From the NCBI GenBank assembly GCA_965220965.1, contig CBDCRI010000001.1, positions 224,001 to 288,000 on the forward strand: 64,000 bases of DNA, in the 5' to 3' direction. The notes under the pieces are model-generated. The model was not told where the DNA came from. It did not search any database and worked only from the letters and a program-made list of their open reading frames with translations. This stretch comes from Candidatus Marinacidobacterium sp. Its GTDB lineage: Bacteria; Acidobacteriota; Vicinamibacteria; Marinacidobacterales; Marinacidobacteraceae. Positions 2,922 to 61,040 of the stretch are shown one piece after another. Positions within the stretch are counted from its first letter, which is position 1, and every line of letters begins with the position of its first letter. The translations under genes and the position numbers were made by a program.

Positions 2922-3388
2922 CAGGGAACGGCAGGATCGACGGCATCCGCGTGCGCGTCACGCCGCGGCGCAGCTGGCGGCTGCAGCTCGTCAGGCTGTC
3001 GGGGGAGTGGCACGCCCTCGTGAAGGGCCGCAGCCAGGCTCCGGTCGAGGCCAAGGCCCGCACGGCCCAAGCCGCGCTGGAGCGCGCCTTGGGCGCCTGG
3101 GCCGACAGGCCCGAGGTGACGGCTGCCGCGCCAAGGTCGGCCGGAGCCTTGGCCTTCGAGTTGCCTGATGAGGACGGCGCCTGGCTCTGCCTGAGGCACC
3201 GGGGGATGGACGCCACGTGGTCCTGCGAGTTCGGCAGCGTGGCCCGCCGGCGAACCGTCACCGGGCACCGCTGCCCGGAGGACGCCATCGCCGCCGCGTC
3301 ACGGGCGTGGCCGGCGGCCATTGCGCCCCTGCGCCTCGGCGCCGGGCCGCCTCCCCCGCCAAGCCGGCCCGCGGCCGGCGGTCCCTGA
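2918..3388 (+). CDS. Hypothetical protein
   Basis: ATGA overlap with upstream stop. Confidence 0.55.
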   Translation: MTGNGRIDGIRVRVTPRRSWRLQLVRLSGEWHALVKGRSQAPVEAKARTAQAALERALGAWADRPEVTAAAPRSAGALAFELPDEDGAWLCLRHRGMDATWSCEFGSVARRRTVTGHRCPEDAIAAASRAWPAAIAPLRLGAGPPPPPSRPAAGGP

Positions 3389-3407
3389 CGTCCCCGGGCG
3401 CCGCCCA

Positions 3408-4445
3408 ATGCCGGTCTCCATAGTCGTCGGCGGCCAGTTCGGCTCGGAGGGCAAGGGCAAGGTCGCCCACTGGCTCGCGGCCCGGCAGCAGGCGTGCCAC
3501 GCCGTTCGCGTCGGCGGCCCCAACTCGGGCCACACCGCGCTCTCCGAGGGCCGGCTGCGCGCGTTCCGCCAGCTCCCAACCTGCATCCTGCATGAGCCCG
3601 TGGTCGGCGTCATCCCCGCGGGGGCCTACGTGGACGAGGCGCTCCTGCTGTCGGAGGCGGAGGCCGCCGGCATCGACGAGTCCCGGCTGCTGATCCATCC
3701 CGATGCGGTCCTGCTCGACGAGTCCATGCGCGAGGAGGAGCGCCGGGCCGGCCTCGTCGAAGGGGTCGCCTCGACCGGACAGGGCGTCGGCGCGGCGCTC
3801 AGGCGGCGCGTCATGCGCATGCGCTCCGTCAGGTTCGCCCGCGACTCCGAGTCCTTGCGGCCATTCCTGCGGCCGGACCTGGGCGCGCGCCTGGCCGAGG
3901 CGCTCGACCGCGGCGGCCGCATCGTCATCGAGGGCACGCAGGGGTTCGGGCTGTCGCTGCTGCACGGCGGCCACTACCCGTTCGCCACCAGCCGCGACAC
4001 CACCGCCGCGGGCATGCTCTCGGAGGCCGGCCTCAGCCCCCGCGACGTGGACTGCGTGTCGCTGGTGATCCGCGCCCTCCCCATCCGCGTGCAGGGCAAC
4101 TCCGGCCCCCTCCCCCGCGAGACCTCCTGGGCCGAGGTGCGGCGCCGCAGCGGGGCGGGCGTCGACCTGGCCGAGACGACCACCGCCACCGGCCGGCGGC
4201 GGCGGGTGGCGCGCTTCGACCCCCGCGTCGTGCGCCGCGCCATCGCCGTCAACCGCCCGAGCCAGCTGGTGCTCAACCACGTGGACCTCATCGACTGCGC
4301 GGCGCACGGCAAGTCCCGCCTCACCGCGCGCGCGGGCGCCGCGGTGGCGGACATCGAAAGCTCGCTCGGCGCGAGGGTCGACTACGCGGGCACCGGCCCG
4401 GGCAGCCTCATCAGCCGCCCTGCGGGCGGCTGGGCCTGCGGCTAG
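3408..4445 (+). CDS. Short adenylosuccinate synthetase-family protein, PurZ0-like
   Basis: GGQFGSEGKGK (Ser at the PurA catalytic Asp), GGPNSGHT, IEGTQGFGLS, YPFATSRDTT, PIRVQGNSGPL, TTATGRRRRV; about 345 aa. Confidence 0.85.
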   Translation: MPVSIVVGGQFGSEGKGKVAHWLAARQQACHAVRVGGPNSGHTALSEGRLRAFRQLPTCILHEPVVGVIPAGAYVDEALLLSEAEAAGIDESRLLIHPDAVLLDESMREEERRAGLVEGVASTGQGVGAALRRRVMRMRSVRFARDSESLRPFLRPDLGARLAEALDRGGRIVIEGTQGFGLSLLHGGHYPFATSRDTTAAGMLSEAGLSPRDVDCVSLVIRALPIRVQGNSGPLPRETSWAEVRRRSGAGVDLAETTTATGRRRRVARFDPRVVRRAIAVNRPSQLVLNHVDLIDCAAHGKSRLTARAGAAVADIESSLGARVDYAGTGPGSLISRPAGGWACG

Positions 4446-7753: not shown

Positions 7754-7886
7754 GCCTGCTCCTTGACCGCTTCGGGGGTGTGCACGCCATTAAAGCGGCC
7801 CGCGCCCGAATGGCCCCCGGGCGCGCGGCCCAAGGCCGCCGCGAATCCTAGAATGGGCTTGGCAAACCGACGGCGGGGAGGCCGTG

Positions 7887-8318
7887 ATGCCCGACTTCGT
7901 GGAGCCCAACAGCCGGCAGGTGGGCGGCCGTCACTACAAGACGGTCGACTACGAGCCTTGGGACTTCGTCGCCGACTGCGGCCTGGACTACTTCGCCGGC
8001 ACCGCCGTGAAGTACCTGGTCCGGCGCAAGGGCGACCGCGCCGAGGACCTGGAGAAGGCCGTGCACTTCCTGGAGAAGCGCGCCGCGGTGGCCGCCGCGC
8101 GGCCCGGGCGCTGGGGCCGGCCTCCCGAGCGGGACGGCGAGCCCGCCAGCGGGCGCCTCGGCCGCCTGTGCCGCGCCCACGGCGCCAGCGGGGCGGTGCG
8201 CAAGGCGCTGGAGCGCCTGCTCGCGGGCCAGTGGCTCGCCGCCGCCGCCGCCGCACGGGAGGAGATCGCGGCGCTCCCCGGCTCCCAGGCTGCGCCCGGC
8301 CGCGGACCGCGGCCCTAG
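7887..8318 (+). CDS. DUF3310 (SaV-like, putative nucleotide kinase) protein
   Basis: QVGGRHYK...EPWDF...YFAGTAVKYLVR.KG...EDLEKAVHFLE; TAGAAT at 7849-7854; GGAGG RBS. Confidence 0.85.
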   Translation: MPDFVEPNSRQVGGRHYKTVDYEPWDFVADCGLDYFAGTAVKYLVRRKGDRAEDLEKAVHFLEKRAAVAAARPGRWGRPPERDGEPASGRLGRLCRAHGASGAVRKALERLLAGQWLAAAAAAREEIAALPGSQAAPGRGPRP

Positions 8319-33661: not shown

Positions 33662-34177
33662 CTATACTGGACGCATGAACATGTTCGCAAGAACGGCCGG
33701 GCTCCCCGCCGAGGGGCCGCCGCTCCGGGGGCGGCGGCCTTCGCCCCCGCTGGCCATCGCCGACGGTCGGCGGGCCGTGGCCGGCCGATGGCTGAGCTGC
33801 GCAAGGCGGGCGAGCGCCAGCCCAACCGCCGCGGCCTCCGTCGCCCCGCTGGCGGCTGCGGCGTTGCCGCGCCCGTCCGCAACCTCAACGCTCCAATGGC
33901 TGGCCGGAAAGCCCCGGCCGTCGCGCTTGATGGCGATCCGGGCCAGGCCGCGCAGGCGCGGCCAGATGGCGGGCTGGAGATCAATCCGGACCGCCGCCAA
34001 AGCGGCCGCCGCTGCCGCCTCAAGGCAGTCCGCCTCGGCGCGGGCCTCCTCCACGCCGGCCAGGCCGCCACGCCCGACGGCCGCGACCGCCGCCCAGCGA
34101 CCATTGCGCTTCACGCCCGCGGCCAGGCGGAGCCAATAGACGCCCGTGCCGGGCCTCCGTTCGGCGCGCCGCATCAT
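33662..34177 (-). CDS. Hypothetical protein
   Basis: ATGA overlap with the dUTPase-like stop. Confidence 0.5.
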   Translation of the reverse strand: MMRRAERRPGTGVYWLRLAAGVKRNGRWAAVAAVGRGGLAGVEEARAEADCLEAAAAAALAAVRIDLQPAIWPRLRGLARIAIKRDGRGFPASHWSVEVADGRGNAAAASGATEAAAVGLALARLAQLSHRPATARRPSAMASGGEGRRPRSGGPSAGSPAVLANMFMRPV

Positions 34178-35184
34178 CGCGGCTGGGGCTCGGCGGCAGG
34201 CTTGGCGGGCCCTTCTCGCGGAGCGCCGGGAGCCGGTGCCCGCAGATCCAGCCCCTGGGCCTTGAGCAACGCACGAACTGCGCCGAACGCCTCCGTCGGC
34301 AAGGGCATGCCCCTCAGGCTGCATCGGGCCATCCGGTCGACCGCCAAACGGGCCGCTTCGATGGACGGGGGCTGAACCTCCGGAGGGGGGCCGTCGATGA
34401 GCCCATGCAGCGATTCCAAGTTGGCGCGGACGCCGTCCCAGTCGGAGGGCTGGAGCCGCCACCACTTCCATCCGAGGGCGTCCATCAAGCGGGCGCAGAC
34501 CTCCCATCCGTGGGCCGGCGGCTCCTCCGGCGCGGGCTGCGCATCCCCTCCCCCTTCGGGCAGCGGCTCGGTCCCGGCCTGGAAGGCCTCCAGGCGGCCA
34601 AGCACGCGGTAGGCCAGCTCCCGCGCGCTCCCGGCCGAGACCCCCTGCATGGCCGCCAGCAGCGCCACGTTGTCCCCGGCGCCGCTCCAGCGCGGATCGT
34701 AAGCCCCTTGCTTGGCGCCGTTGCGCAGACGGAACAGGGAAAGGGCGTGCTTGCCCGCCGACAGCCGCAGGAGGTCCTCGGCGCTCATGCTGGCGGCCTG
34801 GAGCATCCCGGCGAAGGCGCCAGGCGCGAAGAAGGGGAGGATGAGCGCCCGTTCCGCCATCACCGTGGCGGCGCGCTCGAATTCCATTTCCGGCGGCGGC
34901 GGGGGGTCGAACGCGCGCAATGCGAAGGCGTCCTCGCCCCGGGCCATCAGGTCGCACAGGCCGAAGTGCCAGACGTCCACCACCTCAAGCCGGAACAGCC
35001 CCTCGGCGCGCTTGGTTGGCGCGGCGCCGCGCCGTCGGAACGCCTCAAGCGCCTCGGCGCACTCCATCCAGACGGCGCGATGGAACGGGAAGCCCGCCGC
35101 CTTCCAGATGGGCGCGACCTCCCGGCCGTGCTCCTCCTGCATGGCGACCATGGCGCGCAACATCGATTCCGGTGTCCCTTCCAT
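34174..35184 (-). CDS. Dimeric (all-alpha) dUTPase-like protein, rearranged/degenerate
   Basis: RAVWMECAEALE, LEVVDVWHFGL, GKHALSLFRLRNGAKQGAY..RW..DN; GWKWW motif lies in a C-terminal extension. Confidence 0.75.
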   Translation of the reverse strand: MEGTPESMLRAMVAMQEEHGREVAPIWKAAGFPFHRAVWMECAEALEAFRRRGAAPTKRAEGLFRLEVVDVWHFGLCDLMARGEDAFALRAFDPPPPPEMEFERAATVMAERALILPFFAPGAFAGMLQAASMSAEDLLRLSAGKHALSLFRLRNGAKQGAYDPRWSGAGDNVALLAAMQGVSAGSARELAYRVLGRLEAFQAGTEPLPEGGGDAQPAPEEPPAHGWEVCARLMDALGWKWWRLQPSDWDGVRANLESLHGLIDGPPPEVQPPSIEAARLAVDRMARCSLRGMPLPTEAFGAVRALLKAQGLDLRAPAPGAPREGPAKPAAEPQPR

Positions 35185-41253: not shown

Positions 41254-41855
41254 CCAGGCGGCCGACCATCCCCACCGGGCTCACCCACAGCGGGATGCCC
41301 TTGGACGTCCTGATCGAGAGCAACTGCCTGATGCCGGACGGCTGCCCCCGGTGGGACGCTCCCGTGATGCGCGAGCCGCTGCTTCCGTTGGCGCGCTTCG
41401 ACCGCCCGGATTTGCGCGAGACGCCGGCCTGGGCGACCGGCGCGGATGCCCTGTTTTCGGTGGACTTGTTCCTCGCCAAGCGCTGCGCCGGCCTTGACCT
41501 CGGGATGCGGGCGTCCGGCGCGGAGGTCCGCGCCGCGCTGCGCGCCGGGGCGTTCGACGCACGCTGCCGGGCCACCCTGGAATGGACGCTCTCCTCCTGC
41601 CCCCGCACGGAGTTCCCCGACCTGCTCGGCCGCGGGGGAATCGCGATCTACGACATGGCCCGCTGCTTCTGGACGGCCTTCGACGGCCACGCCTTCTCCT
41701 TCGCGGCCTGGCTCAACCAGTGGGGGCGCGACGCCGCCCGCCCGCCGCCCGGCCAGGACTACGAGTACCGGAACTTCCCGCTCACGCGGTCATGGGTGGC
41801 GGCCGGGCGGCCGCCGGTTTGGCCGCCGCCGGCGGAGACCCCGCCTAGCGACTGA
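41250..41855 (+). CDS. Partner protein of the AbiEii-like gene
   Basis: GTGA overlap; AAWLNQW resembles the C-terminal domain of 9138-10499. Confidence 0.7.
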   Translation: MTRRPTIPTGLTHSGMPLDVLIESNCLMPDGCPRWDAPVMREPLLPLARFDRPDLRETPAWATGADALFSVDLFLAKRCAGLDLGMRASGAEVRAALRAGAFDARCRATLEWTLSSCPRTEFPDLLGRGGIAIYDMARCFWTAFDGHAFSFAAWLNQWGRDAARPPPGQDYEYRNFPLTRSWVAAGRPPVWPPPAETPPSD

Positions 41856-42459
41856 CAGGGCACCCCGCGGCGGCGGCGCCCTCGCGGCGGCCGTCCGCCT
41901 CCTCGCCCCAGGCCGTCCAGCCCTCGCGCCCGCCCCGGGCGAAGAGCTCCAGGTAAGGAGGCCTAGAGCAGGCCTCGATCACGGCGTACTGCTCATCGGG
42001 CTTGCGGGAGTGCTCGCGCTTGCGCGAGGCGATGAGGTTGACTTGGCGCCGGCCGGCCTCGAGCGTCCGCGCCCGCCTGCCGCGGACGCCGAACAGCAGG
42101 ATCTCCGTCACGTTGCGGAAGTAGTGGCCGAGGCCGCGCCCGTCGGAGCCGCCGTCCTTGCGCACCTTGTGCCAGACCAGGTTCGCCTTGTACTCGAAGC
42201 CCCAGGCGGCGAGCACGTCCAGCCCCGCAGGCAGGAGGGCGTTCGGCACCCACAGGTAGCAGTGCGCCACGTCCTCCACGTGCGCCGCCACCGGCAGGGC
42301 GCGGATCTCGTCCATGGAGAGGGTGGCGTAGCGGGCCAGCCGGCGGTGCTCCGGGGAGGCCTTGCCGGTTCGGTGCCGGAAGCGCCAAGGCGGGTCCGCC
42401 AGCACGGTGCGGAAGCGCCGGCCCGCCAGGCGGCGCGCCAGATCGTCGGCGGCGCTCAC
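41845..42459 (-). CDS. MT-A70 family adenine methyltransferase
   Basis: VLADPPW, YLWVPN, WGFEYKANLVWHK, EHSRKPD, LELFAR. Confidence 0.9.
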   Translation of the reverse strand: MSAADDLARRLAGRRFRTVLADPPWRFRHRTGKASPEHRRLARYATLSMDEIRALPVAAHVEDVAHCYLWVPNALLPAGLDVLAAWGFEYKANLVWHKVRKDGGSDGRGLGHYFRNVTEILLFGVRGRRARTLEAGRRQVNLIASRKREHSRKPDEQYAVIEACSRPPYLELFARGGREGWTAWGEEADGRREGAAAAGCPVSR

Positions 42460-42506
42460 GGCGCTTCGCCCACGGGCGCCCGCCCCTGCGCGCGAGCCGC
42501 CATCCC

Positions 42507-42728
42507 TCACGCCTCCTTGGCGTCGGCGAGCGCGCGCCGCAGCCACGTCGCGGTGATTCGCGCGGCGTCCTGCGGGGCCGCCTTGCGCAGGAACGGCAGG
42601 AGCAGGCTCGCCGGGTCGATGCGGGCCAGCGCCACGTCCCTTGCCGGCAGCGGCTTGGTCTTGTAGAGCAAGGCGTCGCCGTTGCGGAAGTAGAAGGCGT
42701 TGCTCCTGTCGACGGTCACCTCGATCAT
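42507..42728 (-). CDS. Small hypothetical protein
   Basis: GGGAGGGG RBS. Confidence 0.55.
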   Translation of the reverse strand: MIEVTVDRSNAFYFRNGDALLYKTKPLPARDVALARIDPASLLLPFLRKAAPQDAARITATWLRRALADAKEA

Positions 42729-44177: not shown

Positions 44178-46763
44178 TCATCCGCACTGCGAGTCGCCGC
44201 AGGACAGGCACTCCAGGCAGCCGCCCTGCCGGACCACGGACCCGGGGGCGCCGCAGGCGCCGCAGTCCGCGCCCGGCGGCGGCCCGGCCGCGCCGTCCCC
44301 GTCCGTGCCGGACAGCTCGGCCATGAAGGTCTCTATGGCCACGCCGATCTCGCTGACCATGGAGCCCAGCAGGCCGCTCTCGCCGCTCACGGACCGCCCG
44401 AAGGCGGCCCCCTCTGAGCGGATCGACTTCAGCTCGCCGACCACCCCGCGGATGTCCACGCCGGAGCGCATCAGCTTGCTCAGGACGATCATGAGCGCGT
44501 CCTCCCACTCCCGGCAGGTGTTGTTGTCGGAGCGGAAGAACACCTCGTGCAGGCGCCGCTCGTCGCGGTCCGCGTTGATGGTGACGTAGCCGCGCTTGTT
44601 GCCCACCTCCAAGCGGTAGGTGGGGCCGTCGAGGCGCACCGGGCGCCGCCGGGCCGCCACCGGCACCGCCTTGGCCGCGTCGCCCGAGGCCCACTCGACG
44701 ATGCGCCCCGCGATGCGCCTGGCGTCCGCCGGCCAGTCGGCGCCGCCCGGCTCGCCCGGCTCGTAGTAGCCCTGGTTGAGGGCCTCGTGCAGGACCGCGG
44801 CCAGCGTCGGGGGGCGGCGGTCGTGGGAGACGGGCGCATCCCCCCGCAGCCGCGTCCAGCCGTCGGCGGTGCGGAAGGCCACGGTGCGCGCGGCCAGCTC
44901 CTCCGGGTCGATCAGCACGCCGACCCGCTCATCGGAGGGCAGGTAGATCGTGACGCCCTTCAAGCCCAGCTCCCACGCCCGCTCGTAGACGCCCACCATG
45001 TCCTCGTAGGAGGTGCCGGGCGGCAGGTTGATGGTCTTGGAGACGGCGCTGTCCATCCACTCCTGAACCGCCGCCTGCATGGCCAGGTGCTCGTCCGGCG
45101 ACACCTGCTCGGCGGTGACCCACACCTCCGGCGGGTCGGCGTCCGGGCCCGCCAGCGCCTCCAGGCAGAGCAGTTCCTTGGCGCGCATCGTGACCGACTC
45201 CTTGGCCTCCCCCGCCGCCCCGGTGACCGTGCGCAGGTGGGACATCATGAAGGTCGGCTCGATGCCGGAGGAGGCGTTGTTCGAGATGAAGCTGATGGTG
45301 CCGGTCGGCGCTATCGAGGTGGCGTGGGTCCACCGCAGCCCGTGCCTGCGGGCCTGCGCGAACCAGTCCTCAGCGAGCGCCCCGGCCTCGGCCAGCCGGG
45401 CGAAGTAGGGGGACGCCAGGGCGGCCTCCAGGGCCTTTTCGTCCTCGAAGAAGGGCGCCCGCCCCTTGGCCTTGGCCAGGCCGAGGGCGGCGCGCCACGA
45501 GGCCGCGGCGAGCGCCCGGGAGACCCGCGAGGCGAACGCCACCGCCTCCGGGGAGCCGTAGCGCACGCCGAGCAGGTTCAGCGCGCTGCCCAGCCCGAGG
45601 AAGCCCATGCCGTGGCGGCGCTTGGACTCGATCTCGCGGCGCTGGCCCTCCAGCGGCAGGCCGTTCACCTCGACCACGTTGTCGAGCAGGCGGCTGAAAC
45701 CCTCGGCGCTGGCCTCGAAGGCGGCGAAGTCGAACTTGGCCCGCGGCGTGAGCGGGCGGCGCACGTAGGCGGTCAGGTCGATGCTGCCGAGCAGGCAGGC
45801 GCCGTGCGGCGGCAGCGGCTGCTCGCCGCAGGGGTTGGTGGCCCACAGGCGCTCGCTGTCGCGCAGGGGGTTCCACTCGTTGATCCGGTCCACGAAGATC
45901 ACGCCCGGGTCGGAGTCGCTGTGGGCGTGGCGCATCACGGCCTCCCACAGGTCGCGCGCCCGAACCGTCCGCCAGACGCGGCACAGGTAGCGGCCGGACT
46001 CGTCCAGCGTGTAGTTCCCGTCCGGCCCCAGCCGGTCCCAGTGCGCCCAGCGCGTCGCCTCCGCCGGCGGCTCGGGGTCGTTGCGGTGCACCGGGAAGAT
46101 CAGCTCGTGGGCGAAGTCGGAGCGCACCGCCTCCATGAACGCGTCGGAGACCAGCACGCTGAGGTTGAAGTGGCGCAGCTCGCCCTTCTTCGCGACCTTG
46201 TCCTTGGCGTTGACGAAGTCGAACACGTCGGGGTGCCGGCAGTCGAGGGTGGCCATCTGCGCCCCGCGGCGCCCGCCCCCGGAGACGATCGTGGCGCACG
46301 AGGACTCGAACATGCGCATCCAGCCGACGACGCCCCCGGAGGTGGCGCCGATGCCGTTGACGGGCGCGCCCGCCGGGCGGATGGTGCCGAAGTGGTAGCC
46401 GATGCCGCAGCCCGCGCTCAGCGTCACCAGCGCCTCGCCCTGGGCGGCGGCGATGCCCTCGATGTCGTCGGTGACCGCGCGGCTGACCGTGCAGTTGATC
46501 GCCGAGCCCTTGGACCGCTCCGGGTTGGCGGCGGCCGACAGGATGCGCCCGCCCGGGCGCCAGCCCAGCTCGCGCATGCCGCGCTCGAACTCGGCCGCCA
46601 GCGCCGCCCGGTCCACGCCGGGCTCGTCGTCGGCCTCCGCCAAGGCGGCGGCCACGCGCCGCCAGGTGTCCTCCGGGGCGCGCTCGCCCGGGGCGGCGTA
46701 CTTGTCCCGCCAGGTGCCCAGGGAGGGCGCCTGAAGGGGCATCTCGTGAAGTCTCGGGGCCAT
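44178..46763 (-). CDS. nrdJ: Class II (adenosylcobalamin-dependent) ribonucleotide reductase with C-terminal TSCPD and Zn ribbon
   Basis: PGGRIL, SAINC, GGRRGAQM, FNLSV, TNPCGEQPL, GACLLGS, SIAPTGTIS, SSGIEP, DSAVSKTIN, GLKGVTIY; GGAGG RBS; TGGTATAAT at ~46801-46809. Confidence 0.95.
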   Translation of the reverse strand: MAPRLHEMPLQAPSLGTWRDKYAAPGERAPEDTWRRVAAALAEADDEPGVDRAALAAEFERGMRELGWRPGGRILSAAANPERSKGSAINCTVSRAVTDDIEGIAAAQGEALVTLSAGCGIGYHFGTIRPAGAPVNGIGATSGGVVGWMRMFESSCATIVSGGGRRGAQMATLDCRHPDVFDFVNAKDKVAKKGELRHFNLSVLVSDAFMEAVRSDFAHELIFPVHRNDPEPPAEATRWAHWDRLGPDGNYTLDESGRYLCRVWRTVRARDLWEAVMRHAHSDSDPGVIFVDRINEWNPLRDSERLWATNPCGEQPLPPHGACLLGSIDLTAYVRRPLTPRAKFDFAAFEASAEGFSRLLDNVVEVNGLPLEGQRREIESKRRHGMGFLGLGSALNLLGVRYGSPEAVAFASRVSRALAAASWRAALGLAKAKGRAPFFEDEKALEAALASPYFARLAEAGALAEDWFAQARRHGLRWTHATSIAPTGTISFISNNASSGIEPTFMMSHLRTVTGAAGEAKESVTMRAKELLCLEALAGPDADPPEVWVTAEQVSPDEHLAMQAAVQEWMDSAVSKTINLPPGTSYEDMVGVYERAWELGLKGVTIYLPSDERVGVLIDPEELAARTVAFRTADGWTRLRGDAPVSHDRRPPTLAAVLHEALNQGYYEPGEPGGADWPADARRIAGRIVEWASGDAAKAVPVAARRRPVRLDGPTYRLEVGNKRGYVTINADRDERRLHEVFFRSDNNTCREWEDALMIVLSKLMRSGVDIRGVVGELKSIRSEGAAFGRSVSGESGLLGSMVSEIGVAIETFMAELSGTDGDGAAGPPPGADCGACGAPGSVVRQGGCLECLSCGDSQCG

Positions 46764-46954
46764 GCGCCATCCTCCGCCACGCAGGGAAGTAGATATCTGT
46801 ATTATACCATACTTTCCACATCTTGGGTCCCCGCCGCCCGCCAGGCGCAAGATGTTGCGTCCCGGTCCGGCGCGTGCGCGGCTGCCGGCCGCTGGACGGC
46901 GGGCTCCCGGCGAGGGACAATCCCCTGCCCTCCCCGTGGACGAATGGACCCGCA

Positions 46955-47122
46955 ATGCAAGCCGACAGGAAGGGGCGCGAAGCCCCGCTGACCGCTGAGG
47001 AGATCGCCAAGCTCGACGATCGGGACATCGACGTGAGCGACATCCCGGAGCTTGGCGAGGACTTCCGGCGGTCCGCGAGGCGCGTTGATCCCGATTCCGA
47101 GGAACGGGGCGCAAGCGACTGA
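46955..47122 (+). CDS. BrnA-like antitoxin N-terminal fragment
   Basis: DRDIDVSDIPELGEDFRRSA; lacks the C-terminal RHH domain. Confidence 0.6.
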   Translation: MQADRKGREAPLTAEEIAKLDDRDIDVSDIPELGEDFRRSARRVDPDSEERGASD

Positions 47123-47158
47123 TTCGGAAGGGGCGGGAATCCCCTCGGCCGCCTGCCC

Positions 47159-47908
47159 TCAGGGGGCCGGGGCCGCGCCGCGCTCGACGTGCTCGATGCG
47201 CGCCAGGGTGGTCGCCCCCTCGGGGCGCTCGCCGGCCAGGATGGCCCGCGCCAGCCGCCTGATCCGGGACAGCGCCACCGGCCGGTAGTCCAGCTGCTCG
47301 ACCGAGACGTTGACGTGCGGCGAGTCGGGCGCCTTGACGGTCCGGTGCTGGTGGCCGTGGACGTTGACGTGCCCGGCGGGGACGCGCGGCAGCGGCGCGT
47401 GGGTCCAGACCAGCGGCGGGTCGCCGGGCGAGACGAGCAGCGCCACCGTACGGTCGAACCCGCCCATGCGCGACCGGCCCAGCCCGTCCACGTCGTGGTT
47501 GCCGGCCACCAGAACCTTGGTGGCGCCGGGCGCTTGGCGCACGCTCGCCCACGTCTCGTCGCTCACCGCCGCGCCCAGGGCGAAGTCGCCGACGCAGACC
47601 ATGACCTCATCCGGCCGGACGTCCAGCCGCCAGCTCTCCCACAGCGCCGAGTCCATCTCCCCGACGCCGTCGAAGGGGCGGTCCTGGTAGCCGATGATGT
47701 TGGCGTGGCCCAGGTGCAGGTCGGACCACGCCTTGACGGCGCCGTCCGGCGCATCGAGCGTCCCCGCCCCGTGCAGCTCCAGCGCCCGGCGCATGGACGA
47801 CAGGCGCTTGCCGCCCCGGCCGAGCGCCTCCCGCAGGTCGTCGCGGTACAGCTCGGCCAGCTGCTTGGGGCGGGGCCTTGCGGGCCCCTTTCGTCGTGCC
47901 ATGGTCAT
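47159..47908 (-). CDS. Calcineurin-like metallophosphoesterase, last gene of the tRNA operon
   Basis: WSDLHLGHANII, VGDF, AGNHD, WTHAP, NVHGHQH, NVSVEQLDYRPV; GAAGGAG RBS. Confidence 0.9.
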   Translation of the reverse strand: MTMARRKGPARPRPKQLAELYRDDLREALGRGGKRLSSMRRALELHGAGTLDAPDGAVKAWSDLHLGHANIIGYQDRPFDGVGEMDSALWESWRLDVRPDEVMVCVGDFALGAAVSDETWASVRQAPGATKVLVAGNHDVDGLGRSRMGGFDRTVALLVSPGDPPLVWTHAPLPRVPAGHVNVHGHQHRTVKAPDSPHVNVSVEQLDYRPVALSRIRRLARAILAGERPEGATTLARIEHVERGAAPAP

Positions 47909-49358: not shown

Positions 49359-50486
49359 TCAGGCGTCGGGGGCATCGGCCAGCCGCTGAACTGCCGCGGA
49401 GTAGAATTCGGGAACGACCTCCGCACTGCGACACGCCCGATCAAGGCGAAGCGAGCACACCGCCGCTGGACACAGGCCGCCGAAGGGTTCCCAAACCGCG
49501 TCGCCGGGGTCAGTGGTCGCACTGATCGACCTCTCCACGAATTCCAGCGGCTTTTGGCTGCCGTGCAGGCTCTTGTACTTCCACCGCATTCCCTGACGCT
49601 CCCCGTTGATCCGTTCCTTGCCGGCCACCTGTGACTTGCGCCACACGTTGGTGACCCCGGCGGAGCAGCGGAACTTTGCGCGCATGCGGGACCATTGCTT
49701 GGCCGTTGTCGGCTGCTTGCCGTCTTGGCTGAAATAGGGTTTGCCGGCGGAGTGTCCGTGCTTGTTGGCGTAGTCAACGAGCCGTGCGAACGCCTCCGGC
49801 GGTGGGTAGTACCAGAGGTGATCGGCGGTTAGGTACTTTCGCGTGGCGGCATTGGCGACGCCGCAGGCATCGTTGGCCAAGCGCAAGGGCAGCCCGGCGC
49901 GGCGCCACTCGTGGCGGAGCCACTCCTGCATGGTCAGCGGCTTGCCGGACTCGGACGTGAAGCTCGCGGCCTTGACGTACTGGGCGCACACTTCCGTCAC
50001 CACGGGGAATTTCCGAAGCGTGCGGGTGTTGGCATTGCCAGCGATGTGGCCCAAGCCCTTGTCCCAGATGTGGCAGCTTCGGTACTCCCAGCCGTGCTCG
50101 GCCAGCAGGGGGTGAACGGTGGCCCAGCCGAGCTCGGAGTTCCAGAACCACAGCGTCGTCTCAGGCGTTGACCGCCTGGCCCAAGCCTCGACGTGAGGGC
50201 GGTACCAGTCAACGAGGCCATGGGCGGAGTGCAGGTCCCCCGGGAATCCGCTCAGGCCGCACGGCCCGTCCGCGATGATGCATGTCGGCGCCGGCCACTG
50301 TCCGTAGAGGGACTCCGCAGGACCAAAGTGAATCGTTGAAGCGGCTCGCTGGAAGGACTGGGGGTCAATCCACGCGGATGACGAAGCGTCCTCCATGCCG
50401 GTCGGCGCCGCATTCGTGCCGATTGGGGGGAATGGAGCTTGTGGTTCCGGAAACGGCGACCCTTGGCTGTCCGATTCACGCATCAT
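49359..50486 (-). CDS. Beta-class N4/N6 DNA methyltransferase-family protein
   Basis: IIADGPCG (motif IV variant), HIWDKG, HGSQKPL, VWEPFGG; lower GC. Confidence 0.8.
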   Translation of the reverse strand: MMRESDSQGSPFPEPQAPFPPIGTNAAPTGMEDASSSAWIDPQSFQRAASTIHFGPAESLYGQWPAPTCIIADGPCGLSGFPGDLHSAHGLVDWYRPHVEAWARRSTPETTLWFWNSELGWATVHPLLAEHGWEYRSCHIWDKGLGHIAGNANTRTLRKFPVVTEVCAQYVKAASFTSESGKPLTMQEWLRHEWRRAGLPLRLANDACGVANAATRKYLTADHLWYYPPPEAFARLVDYANKHGHSAGKPYFSQDGKQPTTAKQWSRMRAKFRCSAGVTNVWRKSQVAGKERINGERQGMRWKYKSLHGSQKPLEFVERSISATTDPGDAVWEPFGGLCPAAVCSLRLDRACRSAEVVPEFYSAAVQRLADAPDA

Positions 50487-51072: not shown

Positions 51073-51909
51073 TCAAAACCCGCTTCGACTGGCCGGCAAG
51101 CCGTCCCAAGTCCTGCCGCCGAGAACGCGACCGGCCGCCTTCTTGCCGAATCGGCCCATAGGGGCGGAATGGGCGCCCCCATTGACCACGGCCCTTGGCA
51201 CTGCCCCGGGCACCGCATCGACCGGCGCCCAGTCCCCCCATTGCTTGAAATGGAAGGGCGTGCCGTGCGCTGCGCACTCGTCCCGGATGCCATGGAACCA
51301 ACTGGGATCGCTCGGCCTCGCCTGCGGGCCGCTTTCACCGCCGGCGATGACCCATTGGACGGACCCGGACTCCAACCAAGGCCCGAGCTCAACTTGGTCG
51401 AGAAGCGGTTCACAGGAAACGAACCGAATGCGCGCACCCGCATGGGCAAGGTGGGGAAGGCGCTTGTCCGCCCAACGCTGGCTTTCAACTGTGGCGCCAA
51501 GCCACACGTTGGCAGGCCAGTCGCCCTTCCAGGGCACCAGCCGCTGCGCCAAATGGGGCCGTTTGGTCAGCAGCAGCCAATCCAGATTTGGCGTCGCTTC
51601 GATGAGCTCCCACAACCGACGCCTCCAAGGCGCCAACCCCTTCCCCCACTCGAAGACATCCGCCATCGATGCGCAGAAAACGCGAAATCGCGTTCCGGTT
51701 CGAGCCGCCTCCTGGTTCCACGCGTGAGGCTGCCGCCAATACGCGACGCTTTGAAAGCGACGCGGCTTCCCGGCGGACCAGACGTCAAGCCCCAGACGCC
51801 TTGCCCAGGCTTCAGCGTAGCAGTGGTCGCAGGCCGGAGAGACCTTTGTGCAACCCCACCATGGATTGAAGGTGTGGTCCGTCCATTCGATCCTAGAATC
51901 ACGCGCCAT
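51073..51909 (-). CDS. DUF5131 (phage Gp37/Gp68) family protein
   Basis: SRIEWTDHTFNPWWGCTKVSPACDHCYAE, VFCASMADVF, LLLTKRP, FVSCEPLL, WVIAGGESG, FHFKQWG. Confidence 0.92.
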   Translation of the reverse strand: MARDSRIEWTDHTFNPWWGCTKVSPACDHCYAEAWARRLGLDVWSAGKPRRFQSVAYWRQPHAWNQEAARTGTRFRVFCASMADVFEWGKGLAPWRRRLWELIEATPNLDWLLLTKRPHLAQRLVPWKGDWPANVWLGATVESQRWADKRLPHLAHAGARIRFVSCEPLLDQVELGPWLESGSVQWVIAGGESGPQARPSDPSWFHGIRDECAAHGTPFHFKQWGDWAPVDAVPGAVPRAVVNGGAHSAPMGRFGKKAAGRVLGGRTWDGLPASRSGF

Positions 51910-52071
51910 GGAGCGATCCTCGCCAGTTGCTGAAGGGTTATCCCCAAAACCCACATATGGTCACATGTACAGCTTACCGCATGTTGGCAGCGAATGGACC
52001 TGCCCGCCAGTGGGACGAATGAACCGTACGGAAGGCGCGGGCGGCGCCAAGGGCCGGCGCGGCGGCGAAGG

Positions 52072-57206: not shown

Positions 57207-57848
57207 TCAGGGCGAGGGCGAGGCGGCGGCCCTGCGCATGGCGTCGCTGACCGCGCGCCTGCGGCGCCGCTCGGACGGGGCCGCACGCTGAAGGGCCTCG
57301 CGCCCGGCCTGGTCGGGCGGACGCATCAGGGGTGCGGCCAGCCCCAGCGAGGCCTTGGCCCAGGCGTTGACCTCGTCGGGGTCGATGCCGCCCCGGCGCC
57401 TTTCGGCCACGAGCACGGCCTCGGCGACGGCGGCCTCGCCAATGAGCAGCGCATCGCGCGCCGCGGCTGCCGGGGACCGGGGCCGCGCCGCCCGCCCGGG
57501 CAGGCCGGCGGCGATCGAGCGCGCCCTCCATGCCTGCTCAAGCGTCAGGGCGGCCGCGCGGTACGCGCTGTCCGGGCGGGCCAGCTCGTCCTCGAGCCAC
57601 TGCCGCGCCGCCCTGCCGGCCGCCCTCACGCAGCGCTCCTTGGCGTCGTCGGCCATGCGTGCGGACTGCAAGGCCCTGGCGGCGACGCCCTCCTGGGCCG
57701 ACTGGACGCCTTTCAGCGCCTGGGCCATGGCGGTGGGCAGGATGACGAGGGGCTGGCCCGAGGCGAGCGCCGCCCCGTGCAGCAATTGGCGCGTGGCCGT
57801 CCGGGCCAGCAGCCGGCCATCGGGCGCCAAGGGCCGCACCGGCTTCAC
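57207..57848 (-). CDS. Degenerate PIN-like paralog of 27331-28275
   Basis: LAPDGRLL/VILPTA/RDALLIGEAAV/IDPDEVNAW align with VDANIL/VLPRV/GDRMVIAEASV/IDRRRVNAW. Confidence 0.65.
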   Translation of the reverse strand: MKPVRPLAPDGRLLARTATRQLLHGAALASGQPLVILPTAMAQALKGVQSAQEGVAARALQSARMADDAKERCVRAAGRAARQWLEDELARPDSAYRAAALTLEQAWRARSIAAGLPGRAARPRSPAAAARDALLIGEAAVAEAVLVAERRRGGIDPDEVNAWAKASLGLAAPLMRPPDQAGREALQRAAPSERRRRRAVSDAMRRAAASPSP

Positions 57849-58097: not shown

Positions 58098-58454
58098 ATG
58101 GGCCGCTTCCTTTGCCTGTGCGCCTTGACGGCCGCCGCCGGGGCGGCGTTGAGTGATGGGGCGAGCCGTTGGGACTGCTACGGAAGCCGCGCCGAGAGGG
58201 ATGCGGGCGTCGGTGACGTGGTTGTGCTCGCCGTCCATCAAGGCGATGCCGGGGAGGTCACCGCAAACGGAATCACGTACGAAGCGGACGTTGATGTCCA
58301 TGGCTTCGACAGGCGCTGGTTCTTCGGACCGCCCCAGGAGGACGGCTCCCGGCCATTCGTGTTCGAGATCGACGCGGGAAGGCAAGGCGAGTACTATGAC
58401 TCCACATTCCTTTTTGCCGAGCCCTCATTGATCGTGCACTGCAGGAGCGGTTAG
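58098..58454 (+). CDS. Small secreted beta-rich protein
   Basis: N-terminal signal-like segment; W.C ... GFDRRWFFG ... C-terminal Cys. Confidence 0.65.
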   Translation: MGRFLCLCALTAAAGAALSDGASRWDCYGSRAERDAGVGDVVVLAVHQGDAGEVTANGITYEADVDVHGFDRRWFFGPPQEDGSRPFVFEIDAGRQGEYYDSTFLFAEPSLIVHCRSG

Positions 58455-58779
58455 CCGAGGTCCGGGAGGGTTTCAGCGGACGAGCGGCGCCGCCCCTCCG
58501 GACGCCGTCAAGGGCGGCAGCCCCGGTTGGGGCCGTCGGCAGCGGGCCGCAGAGATTCATGCCAACCGCATGGGCACGGCGCAACGCGGCCGGCTCGGGC
58601 GTCCGTGCGGGTTCAGAAACACGTCGGAGCCTGCGCTCGGCAAAGGAAGCGGCGCATTGCGCCCTCGAACCAACAACGAGCTTTCGGTTCGCCACGACCG
58701 CAAGGCCTTGCCAGTGTTTGATAGTGGAGCCCAGATGAGCCACAGTGTCAAAGACACCCGGCAAGCGGGGAAGCGCATC

Positions 58780-59040
58780 ATGGCCGCAAACGAGATTGTG
58801 CGCGCCCGTGTAGACGGGCGGCTTAAGGCGGAGGCCGCCACCATATTGGCCACCATGGGACTCACGATATCCGATTTTGTGCGCATCAGCCTAGCCAAGG
58901 TGGTGAGCGAGCACGGGCTGCCGTTTGACATGCGGGTGCCTAACCCACTGACCGCCGAAACCCTTGCGCGGAGCGAGCGCGGCGAGGATCTCCACCAAGC
59001 TGAAAGCGCCAAAGCCCTGTTTGGGGACTTGGGCATCTAG
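58780..59040 (+). CDS. dinJ: RelB/DinJ-family antitoxin
   Basis: IVRARVDGRLKAEAATILATMGLTISD..R..L..V..E.GLPF...VPN..T...L...GI. Confidence 0.9.
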   Translation: MAANEIVRARVDGRLKAEAATILATMGLTISDFVRISLAKVVSEHGLPFDMRVPNPLTAETLARSERGEDLHQAESAKALFGDLGI

Positions 59041-59110
59041 GTGCGCATCCCGACCGTCAGGGGCAATTCAAGCGTGATCTGAAAGCAGCCCAGAAGCGTG
59101 GCAAGGACAA
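59041..59110 (+). pseudogene. Truncated, frameshifted yafQ-like toxin remnant
   Basis: GTG directly after dinJ; SGQFKRDLKAAQKRGKD in a shifted frame, then similarity stops. Confidence 0.7.
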
Positions 59111-59307
59111 TGCCGCGCGGCGCGTGGCGCCGACGGTCCGGAACACGACCCGCAGCCCGTGCGATAGGCATCCAGCAGGCCCGCTTGAGCGTGCTAGGCG
59201 GTCCGGGGCTCCTAGCGCAGCAACGCGATTCGGGTTGGTTCCCAAGGCCCCCCAATTCGGGCGGAGGCAAATGAAACGGGGGGAAGCGGGGTGTCCGTCA
59301 GTGTGAG

Positions 59308-59337
59308 TTGACATTGGCCCGCGCCCTCGCTCATGAT
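59308..59337 (+). promoter_or_regulatory. Sigma70-type promoter upstream of the solitary CRISPR repeat
   Basis: TTGACA-N18-CATGAT; predicted transcription start about 59344. Confidence 0.6.
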
Positions 59338-59343
59338 CCCGAC

Positions 59344-59370
59344 GTCGCCTTGATCGGCGCGGATTGAAAC
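59344..59370 (+). CRISPR. Solitary shortened type I-C-like repeat
   Basis: GTCGCC-TTGATC-GGCG-CGGATTGAAAC (GTCGC start, hairpin, GGATTGAAAC end). Confidence 0.6.
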
Positions 59371-59534
59371 ATGCAGTTTGTCCCCAAGGACGAAGGCCTT
59401 GAGCCTGGCCCGGCGCCTCAACGGGCGCCGGGCCTCCATGCCGCATCCGCCCCTTCGAGCTCCGCCGCCAGCAAGGACGCCGCCAACGAGGCGTCCCGGC
59501 TGGCGAAGGCTGAGGCGCCCGCGCATGACGCAAT

Positions 59535-59621
59535 GCGTTCCCGCGACGCGGGATGACCCGAGCAACGTGCGCAGTACGGCAGTCGCGACGTAACGTTCCC
59601 CGCCTTGCGGGGATGCTTGGG
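59535..59621 (+). CRISPR. Degenerate type I-E-like repeat-spacer-repeat mini-array
   Basis: GCGTTCCCGCGACGCGGGATGACCCG, 32-nt spacer, ACGTTCCCCGCCTTGCGGGGATG. Confidence 0.6.
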
Positions 59622-59642
59622 CTTCGGCCCAAGGCGCGCGTC

Positions 59643-59798
59643 AAGCGCATCCCCGCATGGGCGGGGCCGTCATTCGGAATCAACGCACCATCGGCCCGAT
59701 AAAGGGCCCATCCCCGCATTCGGCGGGGAAGGCGCTTGCCTTGCGCGCTACCGCCTGCTTCACCTCGTGGGGTCCATCCCCGCCTGGGCGGGGCCATG
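59643..59798 (-). CRISPR. Degenerate type I-E-like mini-array (3 repeats, opposite orientation)
   Basis: ATCCCCGC-n-GCGGGG at 59649, 59710 and 59776; best copy reads CATGGCCCCGCCCAGGCGGGGATGGACCC on the minus strand; spacers about 32 and 36 nt. Confidence 0.65.
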
Positions 59799-60428
59799 CG
59801 GCAATGGCTGATGATAGCGGAGGCGGGGGCTCAGCGCACAAGGGACAGGCCGGCCCGGCGCCATTCCCTGACCCAGTCGATGTGGCGGGCCTCGCCCTCC
59901 TCCTTGGCCTCCCCGCACGGGAACGGGCACGGGGAGCCCGGGCCGGACCAGCTCCCGCACGAGCAGTGATGGCCGGTGTGGCGCCCGGCCAGCCGCCCGC
60001 CTTGGCCCGACGGCCTTCGCCAGCCGCCGCCCTCGGCGGCGAAGCGCCCCAGCGAGGTCGGGCTGCCGCTTGAGCCGTCCACGCCGGACCGAAGGACCGT
60101 CACCGTCCTCCGCTGCGCCGCACCGCTGCGCTTGACGGTCGTGGCGGGCATCAGACCTGTCATGGTCTCTCGCAAGCGCCTCCAACCCGCTGTTTTTCCG
60201 CTTTATTCCGTCGCCGATCCAAGCCGGGCGGCCCTGGAGAGGGGAGCGGCCGGCGCCTTGGAGGCGGCTGTGCAGGGGTGCGGGAGGGGCTGGCCAGGCC
60301 CGCGTTGCTAGAATCGCCGTGACGCCACCGAACAGGAAGCGCGCCAGTGCCGGGCGACCGACCTTCGGACCCTGCCAAGCGGCCGGCCCCCTCCGCGGGC
60401 CGGGCGCCGCGCTAGGCGCGCAAGGGCC

Positions 60429-61040
60429 ATGGCCAAGCTGACGACGAAAGCCGAGTTCCTCTACCAGGTCGACCTGCCCGACGGCGTGGACGCCGCCGTT
60501 GCCGCGGCGGCGATGGATGCGGTGATGAACGCGCCCGCCCGTTGGGAGGCGCCCTCCCGCGCGGATGCTCGGTTCCCGGACGCCTTCCCCATGGGCTGGC
60601 AGGGCGCGGGGGAGCATCCGCAACGGGTCCGCAAGGCCGCGGAGCCGCTGGCCCTGGCCCTGCTCGAAGCCGTTCGCGGCTTCGAAGGCGCGGTCCCGGC
60701 CGCGGCCGGGGGCGGCCCCCGCCCCCTCTCGCCGGGCGGCGCCAAGTTCAGGGACGGCGGCAAGCACGGTGCGCGCGGCGTGCTGGTGGGCGCCTTCGGC
60801 GCGGGCGACCCGGAGGCCGCGGCGGCTGTGACGTCCGCGGTCCTCAAGCACTTCGGCCTCGACCCGTTCTGGTTCGAGTGGCGGGAGCCGGAAGGCCAGC
60901 CGGCCCCGGCGCGGATGGGCGCCGCGGCCTGCAGCCCGGCCGGCGGGGAGGTCATTGACCTGTCGCCGGGAAGGCGGCCAGCCGCCGCCGGGGGCCGCCG
61001 CCAGCCGGAATCGAGCCGGCCCGGCCCGCCGCGGCCCTAG
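60429..61040 (+). CDS. Hypothetical protein (family of 8346-8996 and 10496-11155)
   Basis: GDPEAAAAVTSAVLKHF...WFEW...GAAAC; TGCTAGAAT upstream. Confidence 0.65.
   Translation: MAKLTTKAEFLYQVDLPDGVDAAVAAAAMDAVMNAPARWEAPSRADARFPDAFPMGWQGAGEHPQRVRKAAEPLALALLEAVRGFEGAVPAAAGGGPRPLSPGGAKFRDGGKHGARGVLVGAFGAGDPEAAAAVTSAVLKHFGLDPFWFEWREPEGQPAPARMGAAACSPAGGEVIDLSPGRRPAAAGGRRQPESSRPGPPRP

Follow-up and report, generated by a model that had tools for sequence, protein, structure and literature searches.

What are two very small arrays of CRISPR (short palindromic repeats, clustered and regularly interspaced) doing on a plasmid-like replicon, 47–123 kb away from the other arrays and the cas genes of that replicon? 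The question is raised by positions 59535–59798 of the window, by which we mean the whole stretch of 64,000 nucleotides (nt) analysed here, from a genome of Candidatus Marinacidobacterium sp. (assembly GCA_965220965.1). The genome consists of two contigs, C1 of 2.88 Mb and C2 of 363 kb, and the window corresponds to C2:224001–288000. C2 is plasmid-like, with a RepA_C gene inside the window and a ParA gene at C2:19.1k. The locus contains five type I-E-like repeats (two plus-strand, three minus-strand) that converge on a central hairpin. The initial annotation took it for part of a multi-subtype island of CRISPR RNA (crRNA) mimics that jams or redirects host CRISPR systems. Judged by their sequence, the five are CRISPR repeats and belong to one family with those of the native type I-E arrays of the replicon. 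A multi-subtype jammer is not supported, and in our best reading the locus is filed as small orphan arrays of the resident system.

Repeats of the locus and the native type I-E arrays

The two mini-arrays and the hairpin between them are made up as follows.

59535–59560, plus strand: R1, first repeat of the plus-strand array, GCGTTCCCGCGACGCGGGATGACCCG; 5-pair stem, 3-nt loop, handle ATGACCCG
59561–59592, plus strand: spacer S1, 32 nt
59593–59620, plus strand: R2, terminal repeat of the plus-strand array, ACGTTCCCCGCCTTGCGGGGATGCTTGG; 6-pair stem, 3-nt loop, decayed 3' of ATGC
59616–59633, no strand assigned: central hairpin CTTGGGC-TTCG-GCCCAAG between the convergent arrays, a perfect 7-pair stem seen in sequence and fold
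59643–59671, minus strand: R3, terminal repeat of the minus-strand array; handle decayed (ATGCGCTT)
59672–59703, minus strand: spacer B, 32 nt
59704–59733, minus strand: R4, middle repeat of the minus-strand array; 5-nt loop, handle ATGGGCCC
59734–59769, minus strand: spacer A, 36 nt
59770–59798, minus strand: R5, first repeat of the minus-strand array, of native grade; handle ATGGACCC

The arrangement of the five type I-E hairpin repeats as two convergent mini-arrays, and the lengths and positions of the three spacers, had been given in the initial annotation and are borne out by the sequence. The strand of each repeat was assigned by the ATG side of its hairpin, and the stem and the ATG are present in all five. 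The 64-kb window contains 4 exact matches to CCCCGC-N3-6-GCGGGG, all within 59598–59793, while shuffled versions of the window gave a mean of 1.08 matches and reached 4 in 2 of 100 cases; R1, whose stem is shorter by one pair, falls outside these four. The sequence from 59100 to 59780 shows no third-position GC signal and is non-coding. None of the five repeats matched a CRISPR family of Rfam at E values up to 10.

The same kind of hairpin is found elsewhere on C2. The pattern CATCCCCGC-N3-6-GCGGGG has 52 matches in the genome, all of them on C2, and the reversed control pattern has 0. A looser hairpin motif is represented on C1 by 12 scattered singletons (4.2 per Mb), none with the CATCCCCGC side, and on C2 by 58 matches (160 per Mb), of which 49 lie in seven long arrays, 4 at the mini-array locus and 5 as singletons; one of these singletons belongs to a short array at C2:162.8k and another to a paralogous cassette described below. 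The seven long arrays are situated at C2 ~163.4–164.0k, 190.8–191.6k and 330.5–333.8k, and their repeats recur with a period of 61 nt (occasionally 60–65). Even the 36-nt length of spacer A is seen once in a native array, where it corresponds to a 65-nt spacing (C2:163816–163881).

The initial annotation considered the locus unlike a normally homogenised array, since its stems and ATG are kept while loops and flanks differ. The 55 native repeats show the same pattern: their stem positions and the A-T-G are held in 53–55 of 55 copies and their loop and flank positions in 20–45 of 55. Conserved stems with variable loops and flanks are thus the general behaviour of the arrays on this replicon and no mark of mimicry. 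In edit distance to the native consensus R5 is closest (4), followed by R4 (8), R3 (9), R1 (9) and R2 (12), where native copies range from 0 to 7 and random 29-mers of C2 have a median of 16. R5 therefore lies inside the native range, and R1, R2, R3 and R4 lie outside it; R3 is at an edit distance of 6 from its nearest native copy. The handles of the non-terminal repeats R1, R5 and R4 fit the native pattern ATG-N-N-CC. Decayed handles occur only in the terminal repeats R2 and R3, so that the decay is limited to the portion that processing would discard.

A search for cas genes on the rest of the replicon, which the initial annotation had proposed, recovered a cognate system. The type I-E Cascade genes cse1, cse2, cas7e and cas6e lie at C2:155518–160258 (~155.5–160.3k), with matches for Cas6e (PF08798, 87 bits), Cas7e (TIGR01869, 322 bits) and Cse1 (E 6e-8), and with Cse2 likewise present. 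The models used recovered no I-E-type cas3, cas1 or cas2 from the genome. The mini-arrays had been seen as directed at host CRISPR systems, whereas the mini-arrays share their replicon with the Cascade and the arrays that are cognate to them, which makes a purely hostile jammer less natural.

Some further observations concern the native system. The Cascade-only set on this megaplasmid, with no Cas3 of its own, serves seven arrays and may act by binding only. At C2:162769–162925 and 163845–163880, and at C2:333397–333427 and 333704–333734, diverged internal spacer duplicates of 88–90% identity are seen in the native arrays, and an extra three-repeat array, without the shared leader motifs, adjoins the main array. 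This points to native arrays that are old and that grow via segmental duplication rather than by new acquisition.

A duplicated cassette and the role of the mini-arrays

The plus-strand mini-array is not alone on C2, and the feature that has a second copy is the following.

59516–59622, plus strand: cassette of -10 block, R1, spacer and R2, with a paralogue at C2:22486–22591

The two copies align over 107 nt at 86.9% identity (E 6e-31), and this identity is distributed unevenly. The -10 block is kept at 13 of 14 positions, R1 at 25 of 26 and R2 at 26 of 28 (51 of 54 for the repeats together), compared with 24 of 32 positions in the spacer and 4 of 20 in each of the 20-nt flanks (8 of 40 in total). 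The difference between repeats and spacer (3/54 versus 8/32 positions changed) has a Fisher p of 0.016, or 0.0019 after the last 4 nt of R2 are dropped. The genes adjoining the two cassettes are unrelated. Such a pattern speaks for selection on the cassette's repeats. Seen in a single sequence pair, it is the main evidence that the plus-strand cassette may be a functional gene for an RNA whose repeats count for most. One of the diverged duplicates of the native arrays offers a reference: it shows no excess repeat conservation, its spacer being 88% identical while its flanking repeats differ at 3 and ~6 of 29 positions by hand count.

Two other accounts of the paralogue spacer were tried and rejected. 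A codon pattern in its differences was set aside, as 3 of the 8 changes fall at third positions, which is the chance level. A folded spacer hairpin was likewise discarded, there being no two-sided compensatory change between the only two sequences at hand.

Transcription of the two arrays could be served by the following sites.

59308–59337, plus strand: sigma-70-like promoter TTGACA-18-CATGAT, 10 of 12 consensus positions, ~200 nt upstream of R1
59407–59434, plus strand: GC hairpin with a 12-pair stem and no T-run, between the 59308 promoter and R1
59813–59841, minus strand: weak promoter-like TTGTGC-17-TATCAT, 8 of 12 consensus positions, 14 nt upstream of R5

The promoter at 59308 is the only promoter-like site listed by the promoter scan in 58400–60600, and read-through from it into the plus-strand array could occur. 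The paralogue lies directly 3' of a TTGACA-18-CATGAT site (C2:22470–22499), with the same hexamers and spacing as at 59308; strong hairpins follow it, and ParA and ribbon-helix-helix genes are found 2.4 kb away. On the minus strand, the TATCAT box named in the initial annotation is present upstream of R5, at 59818–59813 rather than 59811–59816, with TTGTGC at 59841–59836, and the site overlaps the stop codon of the upstream open reading frame (ORF). The central hairpin may act as a two-way transcription stop, though it carries no T-run.

The approximately 100 nt that follow the 59308 promoter (59308–59440) fold well and could be a small RNA in their own right: the fold of 59338–59440 has −51.4 kcal/mol and a z of −4.05. 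An ATG at 59371 opens a 61-codon frame without coding signal.

The explanation that we favour, with about an even chance of being correct, is that the locus consists of two small leaderless type I-E mini-arrays, one spacer on the plus strand and two on the minus strand, which feed the resident Cascade. Each array would be transcribed from a compact promoter beside its first repeat or by read-through, the sources of the latter being the 59308 promoter for the plus array and the small gene at 59831–60175 for the minus array. The resident Cas6e would then cut each hairpin at its 3' base, giving products that carry at the 5' end an 8-nt handle of the AUG-N-N-CC type, derived from the upstream repeat, and at the 3' end the next repeat's hairpin. 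Three crRNA-like RNAs would load into the resident Cascade, which has no Cas3 gene nearby, and could there guide it against targets not yet sampled while also occupying it. We infer the transcription, Cas6e cleavage, Cascade loading and target binding of the mini-arrays from the features described above.

Several observations weigh against this explanation. A T stands just before the stem in R1, R2 and R4, where all 55 native repeats have a G, and the 3-nt loops of R1 and R2 together with the 5-pair stem of R1 mean that recognition by the resident Cas6e is not assured. The motifs GTGTTGTACACTGG and CTTAA..GATAGG, common to most native leaders, are absent upstream of R1, of R5 and of the paralogue. 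The site that abuts R1, TGGCGA-18-CATGAC, is weak (6 of 12) and the promoter scan does not list it; nor does the scan list the site upstream of R5, which at 8 of 12 is below its threshold (both of these scores were counted by hand from the sequence). The conservation case comes from one paralogous pair, and no evidence bears on selection for the minus-strand array. No protospacer was found for any spacer in any collection searched, and, its in-genome paralogue excepted, no counterpart of the locus was detected in 60 relatives, in 54 further genomes of the order or in 400 further genomes of the class.

The target searches used four spacers, three from the window and one from the paralogue. The initial annotation had proposed comparing the spacers with host, phage and plasmid sequences, partial matches included, and this comparison gave nothing above chance. 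In the own genome, ungapped matches of at least 23/32 were limited to the paralogue pair itself and one 23/32 chance site; no site reached 15/16 seed-weighted positions, and the longest run from position 1 was 12, which is at chance level and not near cas genes. Within 5 kb of the locus nothing was better than 3 mismatches in 14. With every sixth position counted free, the longest seed runs in five cse1 loci were 8–9, again at chance level; these were the own locus and those of G009, G020, G027 and G045, the four further genomes of the order in which Cse1 was matched. The plasmid collection returned 2 weak partial spacer matches, not above chance, the phage collection 1 weak match, to the central hairpin, and the viral contigs 0 spacer matches. 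In reference genomes the spacer core had 2 matches, in unrelated repeat-free sequence, which is about the number expected by chance on our own estimate.

Searches for homologues of the locus were similar in outcome. Among metagenome contigs the R1 pattern occurs at 9 loci, none of which is a comparable repeat-spacer-repeat unit: eight are of 44–52% GC and contain other repeat elements, and one, of 64% GC, is a lone match. Low-GC contigs among the metagenome sequences (L066, L069) carry tandem hairpin repeats with ~46-nt spacing and the R1 core pattern, seemingly a different element. The homologue search gave only repeat-to-repeat matches and one clpA-like match; the latter, 32/35 over 59651–59685, where spacer B meets R3, and present in 3 of 5 genomes from a single genus of the order, was judged to be chance similarity to GC-rich coding sequence and rejected. 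Contigs of 3 sequencing runs, which cannot show RNA ends, matched the stretch only at the paralogue and in short identical pieces.

The first alternative to be weighed is an RNA anti-CRISPR or decoy of the Racr or Cracr kind, in which expressed repeat mimics would soak up Cas6e or Cascade subunits, or reprogram Cascade against cas promoters, and so protect the mobile replicon, or an element inserted there, from I-E immunity, possibly that of recipients. We consider this unlikely. In its favour, the conserved repeats and drifting spacer of the plus-strand cassette are what would be expected if the repeats alone matter, a consensus-like promoter abuts the paralogue, the replicon is plasmid-like, and the surroundings are rich in genes often tied to restriction evasion (MT-A70, N6_N4 methylase and PurZ-like). 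The TT that precedes the stem in R1, R2 and R4, unlike in any of the 55 native repeats, is found in the homogeneous chromosomal I-E repeats of the relatives G009 and G394. Published Cracrs include I-E arrays of two and three spacers, one of them with a loop smaller by one base (10.1101/2024.10.29.618823). On the other hand, the replicon itself carries the cognate Cascade and arrays, the units are repeat-spacer-repeat structures with intact handles rather than solitary repeats, and neither the own cse1 locus nor the four others are matched by a spacer above chance. The repeats of the relatives are only 1–2 edits closer to the mini-array repeats than the native consensus is, and no anti-CRISPR protein genes were recognised nearby, no dedicated anti-CRISPR library having been searched.

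The hypothesis that the locus is a decaying relic, composed of old I-E array fragments that were moved by rearrangement and are no longer expressed or used, is one to which we also give a low probability. Such fragments would be at home on a replicon whose native arrays are old and heterogeneous (edit distance 0–7), with diverged internal duplicates and with no I-E adaptation genes found. The missing leader motifs, the weakness of the mini-arrays' own promoters in the window, the broken-looking toxin gene in the neighbourhood, which suggests a rearranged region, and the position of R1, R2, R3 and R4 beyond the native similarity range all agree with it. Decay matches the minus-strand array no less well than the competing readings do, but it does not fit the plus-strand cassette: neutral decay would not leave the repeats (51 of 54 positions kept) and the -10 block (13 of 14) so much better preserved than the spacer (24 of 32) and the flanks (8 of 40). 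The confinement of R2 and R3 decay to the part that processing discards also speaks against it.

A special form of the decoy idea is that the duplicated cassette makes a crRNA-like RNA whose repeats are deliberately non-native, with T for G, 3-nt loops and a short stem, and tuned to the I-E Cas6e and Cascade of other hosts. It would then be a decoy or reprogramming aid for the entry of the megaplasmid into I-E-immune recipients while the Cascade-only system of the replicon still worked. This we regard as rather improbable.

Very improbable, in our judgement, are self-regulatory crRNA-like genes of the CreA/CreR type, by which Cascade would be steered to repression of a cas promoter or of a toxin gene in this genome. 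The form is right, in that two degenerate repeats surround a spacer-like stretch, with the 5' handle in the first and the 3' hairpin part in the second, as in the published account of the Salmonella I-E CreR (10.1101/2023.03.10.532045), and a Cascade without a nearby Cas3 would act by binding. However, a partial target was found neither genome-wide (at 15/16 seed-weighted positions) nor within 5 kb nor in the cse1 locus, the 12-position run from position 1 is at chance level and away from cas genes, and the cassette loci are 123 kb (window) and 133 kb (paralogue) from the Cascade genes, neither being inside the cas locus.

Elements of the repetitive extragenic palindromic (REP) kind, whose scatter through the genome the initial annotation had named as an observation that would overturn its reading, and plain terminator hairpins unrelated to CRISPR are scarcely credible. 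In their favour, the repeats of the locus are GC-rich palindromes in intergenic sequence. Against them, these palindromes keep the ATG and handle at I-E spacings of 32, 32 and 36 nt with a cognate Cas6e present, and a genome-wide search for the hairpin found arrays of 61-nt period on C2 and nothing but singletons on C1. REP elements in particular are excluded by this family pattern on C2 and by the want of a CATCCCCGC side in the C1 singletons.

Neighbouring sequences and the replicon

The genes and other features around the mini-arrays, and those elsewhere in the window that concern us here, are listed below.

58786–59040, plus strand: RelB/DinJ-type antitoxin gene (Pfam RelB, E 9e-21)
59341–59370, plus strand: I-C-like unit, ending in GGATTGAAAC and followed by ATG; not supported as a CRISPR repeat
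59831–60175, minus strand: small gene of 114 amino acids, third-position GC 0.90, on the strand of R5 and with its end 33 nt before that repeat
3321–4442, plus strand: PurZ-like gene
7884–8315, 34177–35184, 41848–42546, 44181–47552, 49362–50486 and 51076–51954: modification and nucleotide genes accompanying the PurZ-like gene
57207–57848, minus strand: one of four paralogous proteins

The initial annotation placed the cluster shortly after a truncated yafQ. The RelB/DinJ antitoxin gene is confirmed, and the cluster begins ~430 nt after the point of the proposed truncation. The 87-residue frame that follows the antitoxin has no Pfam match even at E 10, and it is a short motif that makes a truncated yafQ plausible. 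It is plausible that the toxin partner of the antitoxin is missing or a remnant.

The multi-subtype reading turned on the I-C-like unit, which was rejected as a repeat: its score against the Rfam family CRISPR-DR9 is 18.6 bits, where the gathering score is 45 (E 2.1). The GGATTGAAAC 10-mer has 3 copies in the genome, none in an array, about what base composition leads one to expect on our own estimate, and no ATTGAAAC-ended array was found in the genome. A search for Cas8c gave no match, although the positive controls of that search were silent too. Near the locus there are no stray copies of the repeats of the resident type I-G or I-D-like systems, so that no second subtype is in evidence there. 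The I-G system (Cas3g, 615 bits) is on C1 together with three CRISPR arrays. The I-D-like locus, at C2:317–325k, has its own 23-repeat array and the sole Cas1 of the genome.

The small 114-residue gene and the minus-strand array are possibly co-transcribed. Its protein belongs to no Pfam family, and a search of 400 further genomes of the class did not recover it; it has one homologue, 55% identical over 62 residues, which shares a Cys- and His-rich C-terminal stretch.

The window also contains genes of the phage-type nucleotide or DNA-modification kind. The PurZ-like gene matches PHROG 1211, "2-aminooxy adenylosuccinate synthetase", at E 1.5e-67 and Pfam Adenylsucc_synt at 1.7e-41, and around it are a DUF3310 kinase-like gene, dUTPase_2, MT-A70, a class II ribonucleotide reductase, an N6_N4 methylase and DUF5131. 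Structural PHROG families had no match among the 50 ORFs scanned. The replicon might modify the bases of its own DNA. The four paralogous proteins are encoded in the window (as listed) and at C2:160326–161363, 183038–183943 and 251214–252275; the copy beside cas6e has a PIN-domain match (E 5.7e-6) and the window copy has no Pfam match.

Comparison with known arrays and crRNA-like genes

For a CRISPR specialist the locus is a modest variation on a known theme, useful for annotation and not surprising. The setting is more unusual, in that a Cascade-only I-E system, seven old arrays and an I-D-like system are found on one replicon. If the mini-arrays are expressed and loaded, a case from a bacterial megaplasmid would join the stand-alone crRNA-like genes (CreR, Cracr and Racr), and the paralogous pair, with its conserved repeats and drifting spacer, is a natural test of a guide role versus that of a Cascade competitor.

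With ordinary I-E arrays the locus shares a repeat of ~29 nt, a 6-pair GC stem, an 8-nt ATG-handle, 32-nt spacers, a decayed terminal repeat and a cognate Cas6e and Cascade. It differs from them in having no native leader motifs, only 1 and 2 spacers, a convergent pair that shares a central hairpin, a distance of 47–123 kb to other arrays and cas genes, and, in R1 and R2, 3-nt loops and T in place of the native G.

In its order of repeat, spacer-like stretch and repeat with an own promoter, R1 keeping ATGACCCG and R2 the hairpin part, the locus resembles CreR and CreA (10.1101/2023.03.10.532045), but it is situated away from the cas locus, and its spacers were not found to match a cas or toxin promoter even in part. 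It also resembles Cracr arrays, among which are small I-E ones with two or three spacers, carried by mobile elements and lying outside CRISPR-Cas loci. Cracrs are defined by at least 9 PAM-proximal (protospacer-adjacent motif) matches to a CreR or CreA spacer or to a cas-promoter target (10.1101/2024.10.29.618823); here no such match was seen in the 5 cse1 loci, the published CreR/CreA collection not having been compared, and the Cascade genes are on the same replicon. Racrs, of which I-E examples have been validated, are mimics of CRISPR repeats on mobile DNA, often just 3' of a promoter and away from cas genes (PMC10651486); here the replicon is plasmid-like and a promoter abuts the paralogue. 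Racrs are, however, solitary repeat units, whereas here repeat, spacer and repeat follow one another with proper handles, and the cognate system is co-resident. Lacking the target matches of CreR and Cracr and the solitary form of Racr, the locus has the structure of a crRNA-like gene and is, as far as sequence can tell, mini-CRISPR-like.

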